From Shigella phage JK32, in sequence record MK962753.1: DNA of 64,000 nucleotides; one strand, 5' to 3'. The notes under the pieces are model-generated. The model ran no database searches, had not been told where the DNA came from, and saw only the letters and a program-made list of their open reading frames with translations. Shown one piece after another: positions 27,395 to 34,078 of this stretch. Position 1 is the stretch's first letter; each line of letters starts with the position of its first letter. Position numbers and translations under genes: made by a program.

Positions 27395-28441
27395 ATGAAA
27401 ATTAAAATTTTGGATGATGCTAATGACGCCTTAAAAAAAGGCGTCAAAGCGTCTGCTGGGTTTACTCAAAAACAAGACAAGTCAACTTTAACCGCTCAAT
27501 TTCCATCTGAACGAGCTAGCGGTAATGATTCGTCTGGTATATACATAAATGACCTTTATAGTAATGGCTTGTTGTTTACTGCCTATGATTATAGAGAACG
27601 TGTTACTAGTTCTCTTCGTGATTTTAGAAATGAGCACAGTACATTACGTGGATTTGGTGCGAATGGGAAAATAGGGTCAAAAGATTTTTATAAAACATCG
27701 TTTGACCGTGATGCTGTTGCTAATATCCTGCTTCCTCGTAGTCAATCAGATGTTGATGCGGTAAGTCACAAGTTTAATGATGTTGGTGAATCTCTCGTTA
27801 CTCGTGGTGGTGGTACTATTTCTGGTGCATTATCTGCTATGGCATCGACCGCAGTATTTGGTGGTTTGGAAAGTTTGACAGGTGGTTATCTTGCGGATAA
27901 AAACGAGCAGATCTATAATACCGCTCGTAGTATGTATGCTGGGGCAGATCCTAGAACTAAAAACTACGTCTGGCACTTAACCCCACGTAGTATTGAAGAC
28001 CTGCGAAATATCCTGATTATCTATGAAACGTTTGTAGAATTGTCTTATGGATCTAGTGGTATTTCCAGTACCGCAAAACAATTAAAAGCGGAAGTTGATG
28101 CATGGTATAAAAAGACAATTCTTTCTAAAACGGTTCCAGAAGGTGCTGATACAACGGGTACTGTATTTGAGGGAATAACTGACTTTTTGACAAACGTAAC
28201 CACTGTGTCGAATCCTACTATATGGATGGTCTCAAATTTCGGTAAGAGATCTGCTTATGAGGGACGTAATGACTCTTTCGGACCAGCGCAGATCACTAAC
28301 GTAAGACTTGATAAATCACCAGATGGTAAATTTGGTGGCCTGGCAATATCTCCTAACTTACCGAGTACCTTTGTTTTGGAAGTATCGTTTAGGGAGATTC
28401 TTACTCTTTCCCGTGGTACTGTATTTGGGAGTCAATTATAA
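27395..28441 (+). CDS. 48: Baseplate tail tube cap gp48
   Basis: 348 aa; synteny and size. Confidence 0.8.
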   Translation: MKIKILDDANDALKKGVKASAGFTQKQDKSTLTAQFPSERASGNDSSGIYINDLYSNGLLFTAYDYRERVTSSLRDFRNEHSTLRGFGANGKIGSKDFYKTSFDRDAVANILLPRSQSDVDAVSHKFNDVGESLVTRGGGTISGALSAMASTAVFGGLESLTGGYLADKNEQIYNTARSMYAGADPRTKNYVWHLTPRSIEDLRNILIIYETFVELSYGSSGISSTAKQLKAEVDAWYKKTILSKTVPEGADTTGTVFEGITDFLTNVTTVSNPTIWMVSNFGKRSAYEGRNDSFGPAQITNVRLDKSPDGKFGGLAISPNLPSTFVLEVSFREILTLSRGTVFGSQL

Positions 28442-29370
28442 TGTTTGATTTAAATGATTTCAACGAACAAGCCGCTAATCTAGACTTTCAGCGATCTAAT
28501 CTATTTTCGGTGGCGTTTGCCACCGTTCCTAGTAGCAAGACACAGCAAATTCTAGAAAATTTTGGTGGTGCTATTCATGATATTATACCTGGTAAATTAA
28601 ATGATTATTTTGGTATTACAGAGGGTGATTATACCGATGCCGTAACAAATTTGGCTATACATGGAGTGCGTAGAGCCGTTACATCGTCCGGTGTCAAAAA
28701 GTATCTTTTAGGTGCAATGTCATCCCGCGTAGTTCAATCTCTTCTGGGGCAATTTGAAGTTGGTACATATGTCATGGATTGGTTCAATATGGCATATAAG
28801 ACAAGCGGTTTGATGGTATATGCTGTTAAAGTTCCAGAAAACCGATTGAGTTATGAAATGGACAGAAACCACAATGCGCCTAACATTAGAATTACTGGAC
28901 GTGATTATGACCCGTTGATTCTTAGCTTTAGAATGGACGCTAGCGCGTCTAATTACAGGGCGATGCAGGATTGGGTTAACTCAGTAGAAGACCCCGTTAC
29001 AGGGCTTCGTGCGCTTCCTGTTGACGTTGAAGCAGATATTCAGGTCAACTTACATAACCGAATGGGAGTTCCTCACACGATCATGATGTTTAATGGTTGT
29101 GTTCCTGTTGGTGTGAGTTCCCCTGAATTAAGCTATGAAAATAACAACGAAATCACAACATTCGATGTTACTTTTGCGTATAGGACTATGCAAACTGGTG
29201 CTGTAGGAGAGCAAGCCGCGCGAGAATGGATTGAGGATAAGGCAATAAACCTGATTCAAAATACTATTGGTGATGGTACATCTGGATCGTTGACCGCTGC
29301 TGGTAGTGCGTTATCTCGCCTACAGGGTGTTGGTGGTAGGATAGTTAATTCTATTACTAGGTTGTTTTAA
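28441..29370 (+). CDS. 54: Baseplate tail tube initiator gp54
   Basis: Strong match to recalled T4 gp54 (FQR.N.FS..FAT.PS, NMAY..SGLM.Y.VK.PENRLSYE, YRAMQDWVNSV.DPVTGLRALP). Confidence 0.92.
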   Translation: MFDLNDFNEQAANLDFQRSNLFSVAFATVPSSKTQQILENFGGAIHDIIPGKLNDYFGITEGDYTDAVTNLAIHGVRRAVTSSGVKKYLLGAMSSRVVQSLLGQFEVGTYVMDWFNMAYKTSGLMVYAVKVPENRLSYEMDRNHNAPNIRITGRDYDPLILSFRMDASASNYRAMQDWVNSVEDPVTGLRALPVDVEADIQVNLHNRMGVPHTIMMFNGCVPVGVSSPELSYENNNEITTFDVTFAYRTMQTGAVGEQAAREWIEDKAINLIQNTIGDGTSGSLTAAGSALSRLQGVGGRIVNSITRLF

Positions 29371-29374
29371 TGTT

Positions 29375-29397
29375 AAAAGGGGCATTGCGCCCCTTTT
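29375..29397. terminator. Bidirectional rho-independent terminator between gene 54 (+) and lipoprotein gene (-)
   Basis: AAAAGGGGC-ATTGC-GCCCCTTTT: perfect stem flanked by A4/T4 on both sides. Confidence 0.75.
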
Positions 29398-29399
29398 AA

Positions 29400-29912
29400 T
29401 TAATTTAGTATATCTTCACACTGTTTACGCAGTTTATACCGGTATTCTTTAGAACTCAGCAATTGAACTTTTTCATAATCTCCAGACTCATATGCACTTG
29501 ACAGGTCGTCTTGATATGCTGCCTCTACCCCGATTCGACAAATGTCATATTTTCGTGCTTTCTTCAAGTCCAATTGTTCTCGCTCAAACTCTTTTCTTCT
29601 TTTCTCTAAATCTTCCTGATAGCTCTTATTTCTGCGATCTATCTTATCTTGAATCTCTGCGATTCTTTGTTGTGCTTCTTGTGGTAGTCCTATACGCGCT
29701 GCTGCCTCATCTTTTTTCTGTAGCATATCAATCACGCAATGTTCAGGGTCTTGATATACAAATTGCTTGACTTGCGAATGATTGTACCATTGAACACAAT
29801 ATTCTTCAACTTGCTGTATTGATGCTGTTGCGACTCGATAATCTTTTAACCCAGCGCACCCATTAAGCATAGCCACTAAAGCCGCAAGACCAATCAGTTT
29901 AATAATTTTCAT
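29400..29912 (-). CDS. Predicted lipoprotein with coiled-coil region
   Basis: N-terminal signal peptide ending in lipobox LNGC; K/E/R-rich helical middle; ATGA-coupled to upstream ART gene. Confidence 0.65.
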   Translation of the reverse strand: MKIIKLIGLAALVAMLNGCAGLKDYRVATASIQQVEEYCVQWYNHSQVKQFVYQDPEHCVIDMLQKKDEAAARIGLPQEAQQRIAEIQDKIDRRNKSYQEDLEKRRKEFEREQLDLKKARKYDICRIGVEAAYQDDLSSAYESGDYEKVQLLSSKEYRYKLRKQCEDILN

Positions 29913-30742
29913 TTAGTCACCTCACCGAAAATTGTAAATTGTCTACGATTCTCATCGCCGAAGGATTCTACTACGTCGTTTACCTTTATGCAAGTCCCGC
30001 GCGGTAAAATTACTTCACATTCGCAAGGATTCCACGCAATCGACCCAACAACAAAACCTTTATGATCTTTTACATCAATTACCCATGATACATTACAAGA
30101 ATGTTGCATCTTTCCGGTCATCGATTCATATCGATTCTCACAATAAAGGCTAGTGCTGTTTGAAAGCCATCCTCCAAAAATGATCGGTGTCATGCTGGTC
30201 GACACAAAGTTTTTAAAGGTAAATTCCTTATCTTCAATAATACGCTCTATTGTTTGAATGTCAAGATGTTGACCACGATAAAGAGTACCGTTTAACTTTT
30301 CGGTTTTATCCATGACACAATCCATCAAATCGACAATCTCTGATATCTCGTCGGTCATGTCTTCCTCGCCTAAGAGAGCACCATTTACCCATTCGTATTG
30401 TTCAGACACATAATCACAGATTGCATTATATTCTGCTGGGGTTATGTTGTTATGTTTGTAATATTTGAATACATTATCTCCAAAATCTTCGGAGTGTACT
30501 TCATACATCACATTAATGATTTTCTTGACAAATCCATAATCTTGTGTCTCTCGCTCAAGGAAGCGGATAATCTTCACATAATCATCAAAGTTAATCTGAT
30601 CGCTGATCATCTCAGTGATCATGTAACCATTAATCCCCTCAATGCCATATGTTTCGATGTAATTATCCATACGTTCCATCATTGATTCGCGTGAATCTTC
30701 TGAAAGACGAAAATCCTGTAATTGTTTGAACATTTTGAACAT
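29909..30742 (-). CDS. ADP-ribosyltransferase-like protein (R-S-E class, Alt/Mod-like)
   Basis: 277 aa; motifs LYRG, F.NFVSTSMTP..FGGW, ECEVILPRG parallel those in the adjacent Alt C-terminal domain. Confidence 0.7.
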   Translation of the reverse strand: MFKMFKQLQDFRLSEDSRESMMERMDNYIETYGIEGINGYMITEMISDQINFDDYVKIIRFLERETQDYGFVKKIINVMYEVHSEDFGDNVFKYYKHNNITPAEYNAICDYVSEQYEWVNGALLGEEDMTDEISEIVDLMDCVMDKTEKLNGTLYRGQHLDIQTIERIIEDKEFTFKNFVSTSMTPIIFGGWLSNSTSLYCENRYESMTGKMQHSCNVSWVIDVKDHKGFVVGSIAWNPCECEVILPRGTCIKVNDVVESFGDENRRQFTIFGEVTK

Positions 30743-30761: not shown

Positions 30762-30796
30762 AGAAAACGGGGCTAGTATAAAACTAGTCCCCGTTT
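30762..30796 (-). terminator. Hairpin terminator between alt and the ART paralogue
   Basis: Long imperfect stem ACGGGGCTAGT/ACTAGTCCCCGT with flanking A/T runs. Confidence 0.5.
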
Positions 30797-30820
30797 GAGT
30801 CAACCATTATTTCTTAAAAA

Positions 30821-32872
30821 TTACATTTTAAATTTATCTGGCATTGCGTCTACAGATACCAGATCAGCGATAAGCTGACGTAGAGTTGCCTTATCTGCTT
30901 TCTTACGTTCGGTTTTAGCTTCGGTAATAAAGCTGGAGAAAGACAGGTCAGAAGCAGGTTTAACAACACCTTCACGGATGAATGCATCACCGTCCGCGAT
31001 CATCTCGCCAGATTCTTGTAATGCTGCCAGTTCATTTTTGTTCATAATATGTGCCTCAATGTAATAAGTTTCTTGTGAATCCGTCGATGCCGTAGCACGA
31101 GTTACCGTATCAAAGGATAACACAACACCGCGAGGAAGTAAAATCTCGCATTCTTTGTAAGCAAATGCTTTGTTACCTACTGGCAATACGGGGATGTTTT
31201 CCGCGCCAGCAATGGAGAAAGCAACATTAGCGCCACCTTCACCGCGAGATCCAGCCATAGAATCTACACCAGCAACGGCACTAGCCACGTTTGCATTCCA
31301 GCCGCCAAAAATGTTAGGTGCAAGGGAAGTGCTCACATAGTTTTTAAAGTAAAACGCTTTTTGCTTACGTGCAGTTTCCCACATTTGCGACCGGAAGTCC
31401 ATACCACGATACAGAATAGTACCAGGATCAAGTTTAACGCCATAGTTGGAGAAGGCATTATCCAGTGCATCGCACATCTTGACCAATTCTTCTGGATCTG
31501 CGATGCCTTCAAACTCTTCCAGCTTACGGTCGGTTAGGAAGTTGTTCATATTGATGTATGCTGCATCGGCATATTCGCTCAACACAAAACCTTCCGCGCC
31601 CGGCAGATCAAGATCAATATCTGCCATCATTTCACCCATGTTGCTAGCAATTGCTTCAAACATACCGGAAGCAACATTACGTAGGGCATCGGTTTTAATC
31701 TGTGTGATGTGACTACGCAGCATTTCAGCTTTTACATCTGCTGGCATAGACTGGTCTACTCGATCCATTGCCAGGGCGGTGATCTTGTTTTCGAATACTT
31801 CCTCGCTCATGATTTCTTTTAAGCGTTTGATTGATGCTGCGATAACTTCCGCAGACAACGGATCATATTGATCCTGAACTTTTACCAGTTCGCTTACTGC
31901 ATATTTTGCATCGGCTTCGCTTTCAAAAATAGTACGCATGAAACCATAGCGAGTGATAATATCACTTGTCCAGTCATTCAGAGAACGAGCGGTTGAACGT
32001 TCTAAGGCTTGACGATCAATCAGAGTATTAAACTGTTTCTTAGGTTCGGCTTCGGTGATATCTTCTTCTGGTTTAAGATTAATTTTTTCTGGATGATTCA
32101 CGTAGTCGCTGTTATATGTCGCTTGAGTTTTCAGCATTTCTTCTTTAGTCAAACGAGATTTAGCCGCTACGCGTTGTTCCGCTTCCGCGTTTCGTTCTTC
32201 TTCTGACACAAGACTAGCCGCATACGCCTCATCTTTAGTCAGAGATTCACCAGTAGCCTTAGATACCCAGCGATCACCTAAATCACTTTCTACTTTAGTG
32301 AACAAGGATTCATCAAGTTTAATCCCTTTAATCTTATCAATCGCCATCCCGCGACGCTTGACAACAACTAAAGCGATCTTTTTGCTGGTCATTACTTCCT
32401 GCTGGAATACTTCAAACTTCGGTGTACGACGCACCAAACGCTCTATAACGCGCTTAACCAGTTCGGTCTTACCTTTCATGCGGGATACGTTAAAACGGAA
32501 CATAACAGCGTCTAATTGCGCTTTACGGGCTGTTTCCATAACCACATCAAAAGCACTTGCCATAACTGCAATCGGGTTATCGCCTAGACCATTTTTAAGC
32601 TGTACAATACGACCGCTTTTGTTCATTTCGCACAGTACAACATGTGCGGTCTTGTCACCCATACGAATGATTTTAGGTGTTTTGTTGGTGAAGTTACAAA
32701 GACGGACAATCACATCTTTATCGCGTGTCTGTACTGCAAAAAGCTGTTTAGGATTCTGCTTAGGCTTTAAGCACTGTACCGGAGCAATACTGCCAAAGTT
32801 TTCTTCCTCTTCCGTCAACAGCCATTTCTCGAAAGATTCAATCATTAGATCGTCGATTTCTAAGTTAAACAT
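30821..32872 (-). CDS. alt: Alt ADP-ribosyltransferase (capsid-packaged)
   Basis: 683 aa (T4 Alt is about 680 aa); C-terminal ART motifs LYRG...YVSTSLAP..FGGW...ECEILLPRG; position after gene 54. Confidence 0.85.
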   Translation of the reverse strand: MFNLEIDDLMIESFEKWLLTEEEENFGSIAPVQCLKPKQNPKQLFAVQTRDKDVIVRLCNFTNKTPKIIRMGDKTAHVVLCEMNKSGRIVQLKNGLGDNPIAVMASAFDVVMETARKAQLDAVMFRFNVSRMKGKTELVKRVIERLVRRTPKFEVFQQEVMTSKKIALVVVKRRGMAIDKIKGIKLDESLFTKVESDLGDRWVSKATGESLTKDEAYAASLVSEEERNAEAEQRVAAKSRLTKEEMLKTQATYNSDYVNHPEKINLKPEEDITEAEPKKQFNTLIDRQALERSTARSLNDWTSDIITRYGFMRTIFESEADAKYAVSELVKVQDQYDPLSAEVIAASIKRLKEIMSEEVFENKITALAMDRVDQSMPADVKAEMLRSHITQIKTDALRNVASGMFEAIASNMGEMMADIDLDLPGAEGFVLSEYADAAYINMNNFLTDRKLEEFEGIADPEELVKMCDALDNAFSNYGVKLDPGTILYRGMDFRSQMWETARKQKAFYFKNYVSTSLAPNIFGGWNANVASAVAGVDSMAGSRGEGGANVAFSIAGAENIPVLPVGNKAFAYKECEILLPRGVVLSFDTVTRATASTDSQETYYIEAHIMNKNELAALQESGEMIADGDAFIREGVVKPASDLSFSSFITEAKTERKKADKATLRQLIADLVSVDAMPDKFKM

Positions 32873-32913
32873 TTTATATCCTCTAGTTGATAACCTATAA
32901 ACCTATATTTATG

Positions 32914-33184: not shown

Positions 33185-33225
33185 TGTGCATTATAGGGGA
33201 TCGATGATCCCCTGTCAACAACTTT
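33185..33225 (-). promoter_or_regulatory. Early sigma70-type promoter cassette with palindromic spacer (PeSL-like), copy 1
   Basis: Minus strand TTGACA-17 nt (GGGGATCATCGATCCCC)-TATAAT, then conserved leader ..CGAAACGA..AAGGAG..ATG. Confidence 0.65.
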
Positions 33226-33744
33226 TTAGTTATTTTTTAATTGCTCATCTTGCAATAAAGCAATCACATGCTGGCGATGTTCTTCCGATTGAGGCACACC
33301 GAAAAAGTTTGTTTTGTAGAAATACTCTAATCGGTCTTCTCGTGTGCTCTCTTCCATCATGATCGCGGGTAGTCCGAGATTTCGGAAACGTCGCTTTTCT
33401 GCTGGCGTAAAATCGCTGTAATACAGCATAGAATCATCATTACCAGCAATGCTAAACTCATCCTTCATGAAGGAGAATATTGCGTTTAAACGCTGTTTAC
33501 CGTCCACTATTTCGATTTCATAGCGAGAGCCATCATCAATCTTAGCCATTGCGATAGCACCAACCGGAAAATCATTAATCAGGTTTTCGATAAACATACG
33601 TTTGTTTTCTGTGTCCCATACTAAAGGACGCTGATAATCTGGGTTCATGTTGATATAGCCATCTTCTAACCATGCATCATAAACAGAGATGACAAAGTTT
33701 TTAGTATTGGTATAGTAACGGCGTTTAGGCGTTAAACGGTTCAT
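33226..33744 (-). CDS. DUF262/ParB-like nuclease domain protein
   Basis: Motifs DYQRPLVW...FPVGAI...IVDGKQRLNAI match the DUF262 (GmrSD N-terminal-like) signature; start at ATG 33744 with RBS AGGAGA (ORF track gives 33780). Confidence 0.6.
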   Translation of the reverse strand: MNRLTPKRRYYTNTKNFVISVYDAWLEDGYINMNPDYQRPLVWDTENKRMFIENLINDFPVGAIAMAKIDDGSRYEIEIVDGKQRLNAIFSFMKDEFSIAGNDDSMLYYSDFTPAEKRRFRNLGLPAIMMEESTREDRLEYFYKTNFFGVPQSEEHRQHVIALLQDEQLKNN

Positions 33745-33745
33745 G

Positions 33746-34078
33746 TTATAGTCTCCTGAATGGATCATCACGTAAATCAATATCTTTTAAGAACTCATCC
33801 CATGAATGGCGGATATTGTTCTTAATTCTCCAGATAAGCGCAGGGATTGAACGCTCTCCCATCTGGAAGTAAGGATCATATGATCCGTATGCCCAATATG
33901 CTACTACAATTCCACAATCAGCGCAATAGTATTCTATTTCACTTGCTGGCGACCAAAGTCCATCAATATGATCGGTGATCTTGCTTTCGATGTTATGGCT
34001 ATGGCAATCAGGGCAACGGATGCAATGACCTTGTTTATCGTAATTTGACGTTAGCGAATACTTAAACAATCTCATCAT
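33746..34078 (-). CDS. Zn-ribbon protein (CxxC...CxxC)
   Basis: 110 aa with CIRCPDCHSH and CADCG pairs; stop abuts next start. Confidence 0.5.
   Translation of the reverse strand: MMRLFKYSLTSNYDKQGHCIRCPDCHSHNIESKITDHIDGLWSPASEIEYYCADCGIVVAYWAYGSYDPYFQMGERSIPALIWRIKNNIRHSWDEFLKDIDLRDDPFRRL

Follow-up and report, generated by a model that had tools for sequence, protein, structure and literature searches.

The window analysed here is the whole 64,000-nucleotide (nt) stretch of Shigella phage JK32 in sequence record MK962753.1, and the subject of this analysis is a pair of adjacent minus-strand genes within it, encoding a small ADP-ribosyltransferase (ART) and a predicted lipoprotein. The window derives from an RB49-like phage (Krischvirus) that is closest to phage Whisky. 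Its plus strand carries genes 27-28-29-48-54 in this order, and the minus strand converges on them with alt, the small ART gene and the small open reading frame (ORF) of the lipoprotein. The region is matched at a nucleotide identity of at least 90% by 58 phage records, all of them (58/58) RB49-like coliphages of the genus Krischvirus; the whole 1.6 kb is matched by Whisky (MZ504878) only, at 96.6%. An earlier note on this DNA was correct in its observation of the two genes and partly so in its interpretation. It had regarded the ART as an extra one, which does not hold if a peculiarity of this window is meant: the arrangement is that of the annotated pair RB49p183 and RB49p182 of the RB49 reference genome, and both genes are found in each of the 58 Krischvirus records. 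RB49p183 is annotated as 'ADP-ribosyltransferase; similar to C-terminal part of T4 Alt' and RB49p182 as hypothetical, the downstream gene being labelled 'putative lipoprotein' in some records. RB49ORF183c, 44RRORF188c and T4 alt.-1/-2 were given as paralogous duplications of alt by Nolan et al. 2006 (PMC1524935). A search of the literature on RB49 and Krischvirus for the ART, the lipoprotein, superinfection exclusion or virion proteomics returned just this 2006 mention of ORF183c and nothing on the lipoprotein. Both genes are thus already annotated and the paralogy of the ART is already published, so that neither is new as a gene. The new element is the lipoprotein as an orphan, ART-linked, cassette-like and hypervariable gene of early type.

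The ART and the lipoprotein evolve independently. Within the genus, amino-acid identity is 99% for Alt, 98-100% for the small ART and 87-94% for gp54, and drops to 25-44% for the mature lipoprotein. Nucleotide identity with RB49 is 97-100% along alt, mostly 95-98% along the ART gene and 40-48% from the lipobox of the lipoprotein gene onward. The identity break sits at the lipobox, which is a boundary between two blocks of different ancestry, and the juxtaposition of such similar ARTs with such different lipoproteins, separated by a break at this point, indicates that alleles have been swapped. Further along, the baseplate genes 48 and 54 (27395-29370, plus strand) are mosaic when compared with RB49, at 64-100% identity per 100 nt and a synonymous divergence (dS) of about 0.5. 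Pairwise dS among the lipoprotein alleles is 1.0-2.5, and therefore saturated, compared with 0.10-0.19 for the adjacent ART; this saturation implies old lineages that were moved by recombination and not one gene evolving fast in place. The RB49 lipoprotein shares 25% identity with that of the window but 38-44% with the lipoproteins of certain phages in which the ART is no more than 44-62% identical. The ratio of nonsynonymous to synonymous divergence (dN/dS, pairwise Nei-Gojobori) of the lipoprotein is 0.17-0.55, above that of its neighbours, and positive selection on this gene was considered and discarded because the ratio never exceeds 1.

The position of the breakpoints can be read from the alleles themselves. 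Two types of signal peptide (..LVAMLNGC and ..AAFMLTGC) and three types of mature domain (A, as in the window and Whisky; B, as in AV108; and C, as in RB49) occur in all six combinations among the sequenced phages (window 29856-29912, L002, L020, L021 and P0005), which points to frequent recombination exactly at the lipobox. Alleles A and B conserve the C-terminal hairpin and do not share the N-terminal part. Since only the hairpin is common to both, breakpoints are indicated inside the gene as well as at the lipobox.

The small ART matches Pfam family PF03496 (ADPrib_exo_Tox) over residues 85-269 with 59 bits (cut-off 23.4; E=5.2e-16) and phrog_15144 'ADP-ribosyltransferase' end to end (E=4.5e-195). 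The earlier note had described a protein of 277 amino acids (aa) carrying an R / S-T-S / E-x-E signature beside the 683-aa Alt and had proposed its alignment with Alt, ModA and ModB. The signature is indeed present (R156, S181-T182-S183, E241-x-E243), and in an alignment with the window Alt, T4 Alt, T4 ModA, T4 ModB and RB49 ModB the catalytic arginine and both glutamates are aligned and invariant, the S-T-S motif being common to the window Alt and T4 Alt. The same residues (R156, S181-T182-S183, E241 and E243) are kept in 6/6 metagenomic orthologues, from 62% down to 28% identity, and dN/dS between Krischvirus genomes is 0.00-0.06. The AlphaFold2 (AF2) model (predicted local distance difference test score, pLDDT, 78.8; predicted template modelling score, pTM, 0.75) is helical in its N-terminal part and has an ART core rich in beta structure, with a low-confidence loop at residues 187-211. 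Foldseek comparison of this model with the PDB retrieves Vis, Certhrax, C3bot, CDTa, Iota and VIP2 (E 1e-9 to 3e-8, probability 1.00), and the modelled fold is of the C3/Vis/Iota type. Since the motifs are invariant, dN/dS is low and an ART fold is modelled, the predicted enzyme is almost certainly active. By analogy with the family, the R-S-ExE signature suggests a protein-arginine mono-ART.

The relationship of this protein to Alt is restricted to the catalytic part. BLASTP aligns it to residues 413-593 of T4 Alt (E=2e-23) and to residues 487-593 of the Alt of its own genome (E=1e-16; 37% identity over 109 residues), and its alignment to phrog_802 spans just positions 332-602 of 674. The confinement of the match to Alt 413-593 indicates that some 410 residues at the N-terminus of Alt and some 90 at its C-terminus have no counterpart in the small ART, and the low identity to its own paralogue indicates that the duplication is old. 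In the precomputed Pfam hits of related contigs, full-length Alt proteins have PF26846 (Tevenvirinae_ADPRT) and PF03496, and small ARTs have PF03496 only. No significant similarity was found by BLASTP between the small ART and T4 ModA (E=0.4), and T4 ModB gave no tblastn match at the small ART locus. A ModA-like N-terminus, hinted at by the multiple alignment, was dropped since BLASTP gave it no support. The ART set of the RB49 genome comprises Alt, the small paralogue and one ModB-like gene, RB49p014 (L019 8917-9420; E=1.3e-7 to T4 ModB in tblastn); no ModA was found in that genome. At the start of the window ART, GGGAGG lies 6 nt upstream of the first of two in-frame ATGs, which stem from a tandem duplication that is absent in Whisky and RB49; the protein accordingly has 277 aa in the window and 274 aa in those two phages. 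No signal peptide is seen in its sequence.

The product of the downstream gene has the N-terminus MKIIKLIGLAALVAMLNGC. Residues 1-18 form the predicted signal peptide, Cys19 (codon 29856-29858) is the predicted lipidated cysteine, and the n-region, h-region and lipobox of the window copy read MKIIK-LIGLAALVAML-NGC. The lipobox LNGC proposed in the earlier note is sound as to its Gly-Cys pair, G18 and C19 being invariant in 30 aligned members of the family and in 5 more distant ones, and it falls short of the strict rule [LVI][ASTVI][GAS]C (PROSITE PS51257-type). This rule is passed by 30/35 members (LTGC and similar), and the LNGC of the window and four INGC/LNGC relatives fail it solely through the Asn at position -2. 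The LNGC/INGC type of signal peptide is joined to three mature domains (window, AV108 and Skers), which argues that it is maintained and presumably functional. The residue at +2 is Ala, Val, Thr or Ser in 35/35 members and never Asp. Under the Lol rule of E. coli, lipoproteins without Asp at +2 are sorted to the outer membrane, and the constant absence of this residue suggests that Lol would deliver the protein to the inner face of the outer membrane.

The mature domain contains four further cysteines (C39, C59, C125 and C165), exactly four being present in all members. In the AF2 model of the lipoprotein (pLDDT 86.7), which contains helices only, a 60-residue helix (81-143) connects one helical hairpin to another, and there is no hydrophobic helix at the C-terminus; the coiled coil that had been suggested for this protein is fairly rendered as 'coiled coil-like'. 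The positions of the cysteines would suit one disulfide staple per hairpin, as would fit a periplasmic protein. At about 20% identity the lipobox Cys, the four other Cys, D68, G75, G144 and Y146 persist, and the charged central helix differs in length among alleles. The family amounts to 48 clusters among 5.8e9 in an indexed profile search and to 10 clusters among 1.84e9 representatives in an exhaustive hidden Markov model search, and is confined to a single phage lineage, in which its genomic position is always the same. No informative match was obtained with Pfam, PHROG, NCBIfam or PADLOC, and no informative remote relative was found in single-sequence and profile searches of the 5.8e9 clusters or in the exhaustive profile search of the 1.84e9 representatives.

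The lipoprotein gene directly follows the small ART gene in every lineage examined, that is, in six genomes of Krischvirus and in another eight sets of loci from metagenomes, although in the short contig L017 the upstream ORF is seen only as its 63-residue end. The set takes in members that are about 21-34% identical to the mature lipoprotein of the window. Wherever the contig extends so far, alt precedes the small ART, and gene 54 runs towards the unit from the other side. The overlap of the ART stop with the lipoprotein start that the earlier note had reported is confirmed (ATGA); in relatives, stop and start overlap by 8, 4 or 1 nt or are one base apart. Since same-strand neighbours overlap in 21/77 pairs in this genome, the overlap was not used as evidence of coupling. 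A distant T4-like contig (L011, 2366-4386) has a sole Alt-like ART of 316 aa, 31% identical to the small ART, whose gene overlaps a 356-aa ORF on its upstream side and is not followed by a lipoprotein gene; the two ORFs may be the parts of a split alt gene.

The transcription signals around the pair are listed in Table 1 with the other features of the locus. The promoter of the ART-lipoprotein unit is annotated independently in the record of phage GEC-3S, which also marks a terminator after the lipoprotein on both strands. The distant relatives L003, L013 and L016, whose ARTs are only 27-44% identical, retain the -35 TTGAC and a TATxxT -10, and in these relatives the stem of the hairpin that overlaps the promoter is maintained by different sequences. 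This hairpin is probably the terminator of the alt transcript. The predicted promoter, the ART gene, the lipoprotein gene and the predicted terminator form a conserved unit. The signals in front of alt are of another kind: CATAAATA corresponds to the late-promoter core with C for T at the first position, and the sole ATAAATA on the minus strand in 28-36 kb is the one upstream of alt, none being found there upstream of the small ART or the lipoprotein. The simplest reading of these sequences would be that alt is late, as expected of a packaged protein, and that the ART-lipoprotein unit is early through the unmodified host polymerase. A second sigma-70-type promoter with a built-in G+C-rich hairpin, the perfect TTGACA-GGGGATCATCGATCCCC-TATAAT, lies on the minus strand at 33190-33218. 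As a hairpin extends across the spacer and -10 in both promoters (30765-30803 and 33190-33218), the two may represent a recurring terminator-plus-promoter design.

Table 1. Features of the alt-ART-lipoprotein region and the basis of their assignment (positions in the window)
Feature	Position	Strand	Basis
CATAAATA, resembling a late-promoter core; 33 nt in front of the alt ATG, directly after a terminator hairpin	32906..32913	minus	sequence
alt, full-length Alt ADP-ribosyltransferase (683 aa), upstream of the cassette	30821..32872	minus	ORF
Predicted sigma-70-type promoter of the ART-lipoprotein unit, TTGACT-17 nt-TATACT	30775..30803	minus	consensus scan, 10/12 matches
Hairpin overlapping the promoter, then U-run; probable alt terminator	30765..30796	minus	fold -20.9 kcal/mol, z=-2.3
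9-bp tandem duplication ATGTTCAAA x2 at the ART start, two in-frame ATGs	30725..30742	minus	comparison with Whisky and RB49
Small Alt-paralogue ADP-ribosyltransferase (277 aa; 274 aa with start at 30733), equivalent of RB49p183/ORF183c	29909..30742	minus	ORF
Catalytic Arg156 codon (LYRG)	30275..30277	minus	invariant in alignments
Ser181-Thr182-Ser183 codons (STS motif)	30194..30202	minus	invariant in orthologues, common to both Alt proteins
Glu241-Cys242-Glu243 codons (ExE motif)	30014..30022	minus	both Glu without exception in Alt, ModA, ModB and every small ART
ATGA junction, ART stop overlapping lipoprotein start by 4 nt	29909..29912	minus	sequence
Lipoprotein precursor (170 aa), RB49p182 family, phrog_16112	29400..29912	minus	ORF
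Bidirectional intrinsic terminator between the lipoprotein gene and convergent gene 54	29376..29397		scan; fold -16.2 kcal/mol, z=-3.85

Several scenarios may explain this locus. The one preferred here, which comes near to an even chance without quite reaching it, is a conserved early two-gene unit of RB49-like phages that combines an Alt-derived host modifier with an independently evolving, envelope-protecting outer-membrane lipoprotein. What is shown comprises the genes with their motifs and modelled fold, the sequence signals for promoter and terminator, the linkage, and the way in which the two genes contrast in rate and ancestry; the timing, the localisation, the ART targets and the exclusion function are proposed on this basis. 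The small ART would be an old duplicate of the catalytic part of Alt that lost the N-terminal 410 or so residues and kept the R / S-T-S / E-x-E signature. Transcribed by the host RNA polymerase, it would be made in the cell soon after infection and would probably stay unpackaged, and it would use nicotinamide adenine dinucleotide (NAD+) for the mono-ADP-ribosylation of host proteins, most likely on arginine. Its job would then resemble that of ModA/ModB and differ from the injected-enzyme job of Alt. The lipoprotein, made from the same mRNA, would be exported by Sec/Lgt/LspA and carried by Lol to the inner face of the outer membrane, where the mature protein, helical and disulfide-stapled, would project its long central helix into the periplasm. 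Its mature domain would be exchanged as a cassette between phages, with the conserved signal peptide as one recombination arm, and it would shield the infected cell by blocking injection or adsorption by competing phages, or by preventing the inactivation of progeny on debris.

The case for this last function is circumstantial. A role of the lipoprotein in envelope-level exclusion or protection is possible but on balance doubtful, and it is favoured because of the early promoter, the export, the arms-race-like diversity of alleles, the lack of detectable Imm/Sp homologues and the spanins already present. As to the homologues, tblastn of T4 Imm against the window and the RB49 genome gave no match, and the best match of T4 Sp in the same search (E=0.06, inside gene 41) was not significant. 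RB49-like phages use OmpA and the O-antigen as receptors (PMC9569957). The earlier note had considered a host-modifying pair or a superinfection-exclusion module; exclusion remains the best guess for the lipoprotein, whereas a working pair is unlikely, given the different compartments and the independent evolution of its members. A more specific and clearly unlikely proposal is that the alleles define exclusion groups among co-circulating RB49-like phages. The lipoprotein would in that case be a periplasmic blocker, anchored in the outer membrane and installed within minutes of infection, whose variable N-terminal hairpin recognises the injection apparatus of particular rivals, and whose cassettes are traded with the conserved signal peptide and C-terminal hairpin serving as arms for recombination. 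The idea of a receptor mask that co-evolves with the adhesin, in the manner of T5 Llp, was considered separately and is not supported, since allele type does not track gp38 type. A spanin was also considered. It is unlikely because RB49 already has pseT.2/pseT.3 ('Rz-like spanin'); in addition, the upstream neighbour is an ART, the model shows no C-terminal hydrophobic helix and the promoter is of early type.

A number of points weigh against the preferred reading. The dN/dS of the lipoprotein is that of a relaxed gene and does not exceed 1. The promoter of the unit is a consensus match only. The lipobox of the window copy departs from the rule at -2, as described above. Both types of gp38 adhesin occur in allele groups B and C among the Krischvirus records, with no association between adhesin and allele. 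The constant adjacency of the ART and lipoprotein genes could be plain inherited synteny, and the N-terminus of the small ART resembles a T4 capsid-targeting sequence, which would favour packaging. Finally, experimental work on the small ART or the lipoprotein was not found in the literature.

The resemblance of the ART N-terminus is the starting point of an alternative scenario, in which the small ART is packaged in the head and injected like Alt, its N-terminus being a capsid-targeting leader cut by the prohead protease, so that two ARTs are delivered. The sequence MFK(MFK)QLQDFRLSE recalls the T4 IPII/IPIII leader MKTYQEFIAE, which ends in the protease motif [LI]-x-E, a motif present within the first 16 residues of 4/6 small-ART orthologues as compared with 16% of the window ORFs, although this count is a small-sample statistic on related proteins. 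The gene also adjoins alt and structural genes, a context that has been tied to packaged ARTs (PMC9503650). Nevertheless, the N-terminal residues vary among orthologues, the protein lacks the N-terminal 410 or so residues of Alt, and the ART, unlike alt, has its own sigma-70-type promoter, kept across lineages, and no late-promoter core. The injection that had been suggested earlier is disfavoured on these last grounds, and packaging is improbable.

Two other scenarios, each of them quite improbable, concern the lipoprotein and are the main alternatives to its exclusion role. In the first, the lipoprotein would be a structural or lysis-related envelope factor, an Lpp-like tether or spacer that alters the link between outer membrane and peptidoglycan, the timing of lysis or vesiculation. 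The long single helix of the model and the varying length of its charged part among alleles would suit such a role, as would the Lys at the end of most family members, which is also found in Lpp, but the window copy and some others terminate in Asn. NCBIfam NF040598 (Lpp/OprI alanine-zipper) matches residues 2-99 with 21.5 bits (E=2.5e-4), yet this score lies under the cut-off of 43 and is partly driven by the signal peptide. Moreover, RB49 already has spanins, a holin, RI and an endolysin, the promoter of the lipoprotein is early and not late, and the extreme diversity of its alleles would be unexpected in a housekeeping envelope tether.

In the second of these scenarios the linkage would have no functional meaning, the lipoprotein being a fast-drifting, marginal accessory gene at a recombination-prone boundary between early and late blocks. 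The dN/dS values are compatible with relaxed constraint, the adjoining gp54 and gp48 genes are likewise mosaic, and the family occurs in one phage lineage only and at one position. Against this, the lipoprotein ORF is intact in 58/58 Krischvirus genomes and in deep relatives, invariant residues persist at about 20% identity, the promoter and terminator are conserved, and saturated dS with intact frames argues for old, maintained alleles and not for decay. Least of all is to be expected of a toxin-immunity or enzyme-partner pair of the Tre1-Tri1 kind, a very improbable option for which the juxtaposition is tight and conserved, the lipoprotein is never seen elsewhere and the nearest solved sequences or folds include ART toxins with cognate immunity (6dre Tre1, E=0.06; 8za7), but a physical partnership is unlikely because an ART without a signal peptide and a partner with a conserved lipoprotein signal peptide would belong to different compartments and because nearly identical ARTs stand beside very different lipoproteins with a recombination break between them and no co-evolution, while overlapping genes are common in this genome and there is no PADLOC match.

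The locus belongs to a group of phages that is used in phage-therapy cocktails. RB49-like phages would have three ARTs, namely Alt, the small Alt-derived enzyme and a ModB-like protein, where T4 has Alt, ModA and ModB. The small ART may be viewed as a natural experiment in which an injected effector was re-purposed as one made early inside the cell, and its targets may differ from those of the T4 enzymes. The lipoprotein is the more interesting half: it belongs to an orphan family confined to this phage lineage, and no other gene in the stretch, which is otherwise 95-100% identical, comes near it in variability; its alleles are ancient and shuffled between phages. If it does mediate exclusion between phages, it would bear on which related phages can be combined in a cocktail and would add a protein class to envelope-level exclusion. 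If, further, its alleles are exclusion groups, they would be a lytic-phage counterpart of the diversity of colicin immunity or of prophage Sie systems, and the exclusion class would be new and structurally unrelated. If the lipoprotein does nothing of this kind, the locus amounts to no more than a pair of accessory genes that are annotated but uncharacterised.

With regard to the surroundings of the unit, the alt product matches phrog_802 over its full length (E=8.5e-180), is retrieved by tblastn with T4 Alt (E=1.8e-57) and is 99% identical to RB49 Alt. Beyond alt, a 184-aa ORF on the minus strand (33226-33780) encodes a GmrSD_N/DUF262 (ParB-like) domain (Pfam E=6e-20) and matches the PADLOC models NsnA (2e-20) and PD-T4-2_A (6e-12). 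This ORF is a phage-borne version of a domain that is characteristic of anti-phage nucleases; the nuclease half is missing.

Among known systems, the closest is naturally RB49 itself. RB49p183/RB49p182 lie at the same position, the ART is 98% identical, and the ATGA junction, the promoter and the terminator are the same, but the window lipoprotein is another allele, 25-30% identical to RB49p182. In Whisky the lipoprotein is 96.5% identical to that of the window, but it has the other type of signal peptide. With respect to its proposed function, the lipoprotein may be compared with T4 Sp/Imm, T5 Llp and TraT, which are likewise small exported proteins of a resident element acting at the envelope. 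Of these, T4 Sp carries a periplasmic annotation, whereas Llp and TraT are lipoproteins of the outer membrane, and TraT interferes with OmpA-specific phages. There is no homology between the lipoprotein and these exclusion proteins, and it has no Pfam, PHROG or fold match to any characterised one.

The same slot between alt and gene 54 is occupied in T4 by alt.-1, alt.-2 and alt.-3. The earlier note had placed T4 alt directly after gene 54, which overlooks these three genes. Alt.-1 and alt.-2 are annotated as an alt duplication, but it was the first part of alt that gave rise to them, and stops interrupt their frames, whereas the copy of the RB49 type stems from the catalytic part and has remained intact; alt.-3, for its part, is not a lipoprotein. 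T4 Alt belongs to the same catalytic domain family as the small ART and shares its R / STS / ExE signature. The two differ in that the small ART has only 277 aa and an early-type promoter, as opposed to the late-type promoter of alt. Similarity to T4 ModA is not significant, and RB49 has a separate ModB-like protein in RB49p014. Nevertheless, ModA and ModB, which are early and non-packaged ARTs, have in common with the small ART their small size, the R...ExE residues and, in all likelihood, early expression, and they are proposed here as the working analogy for the small ART of the RB49-like phages.

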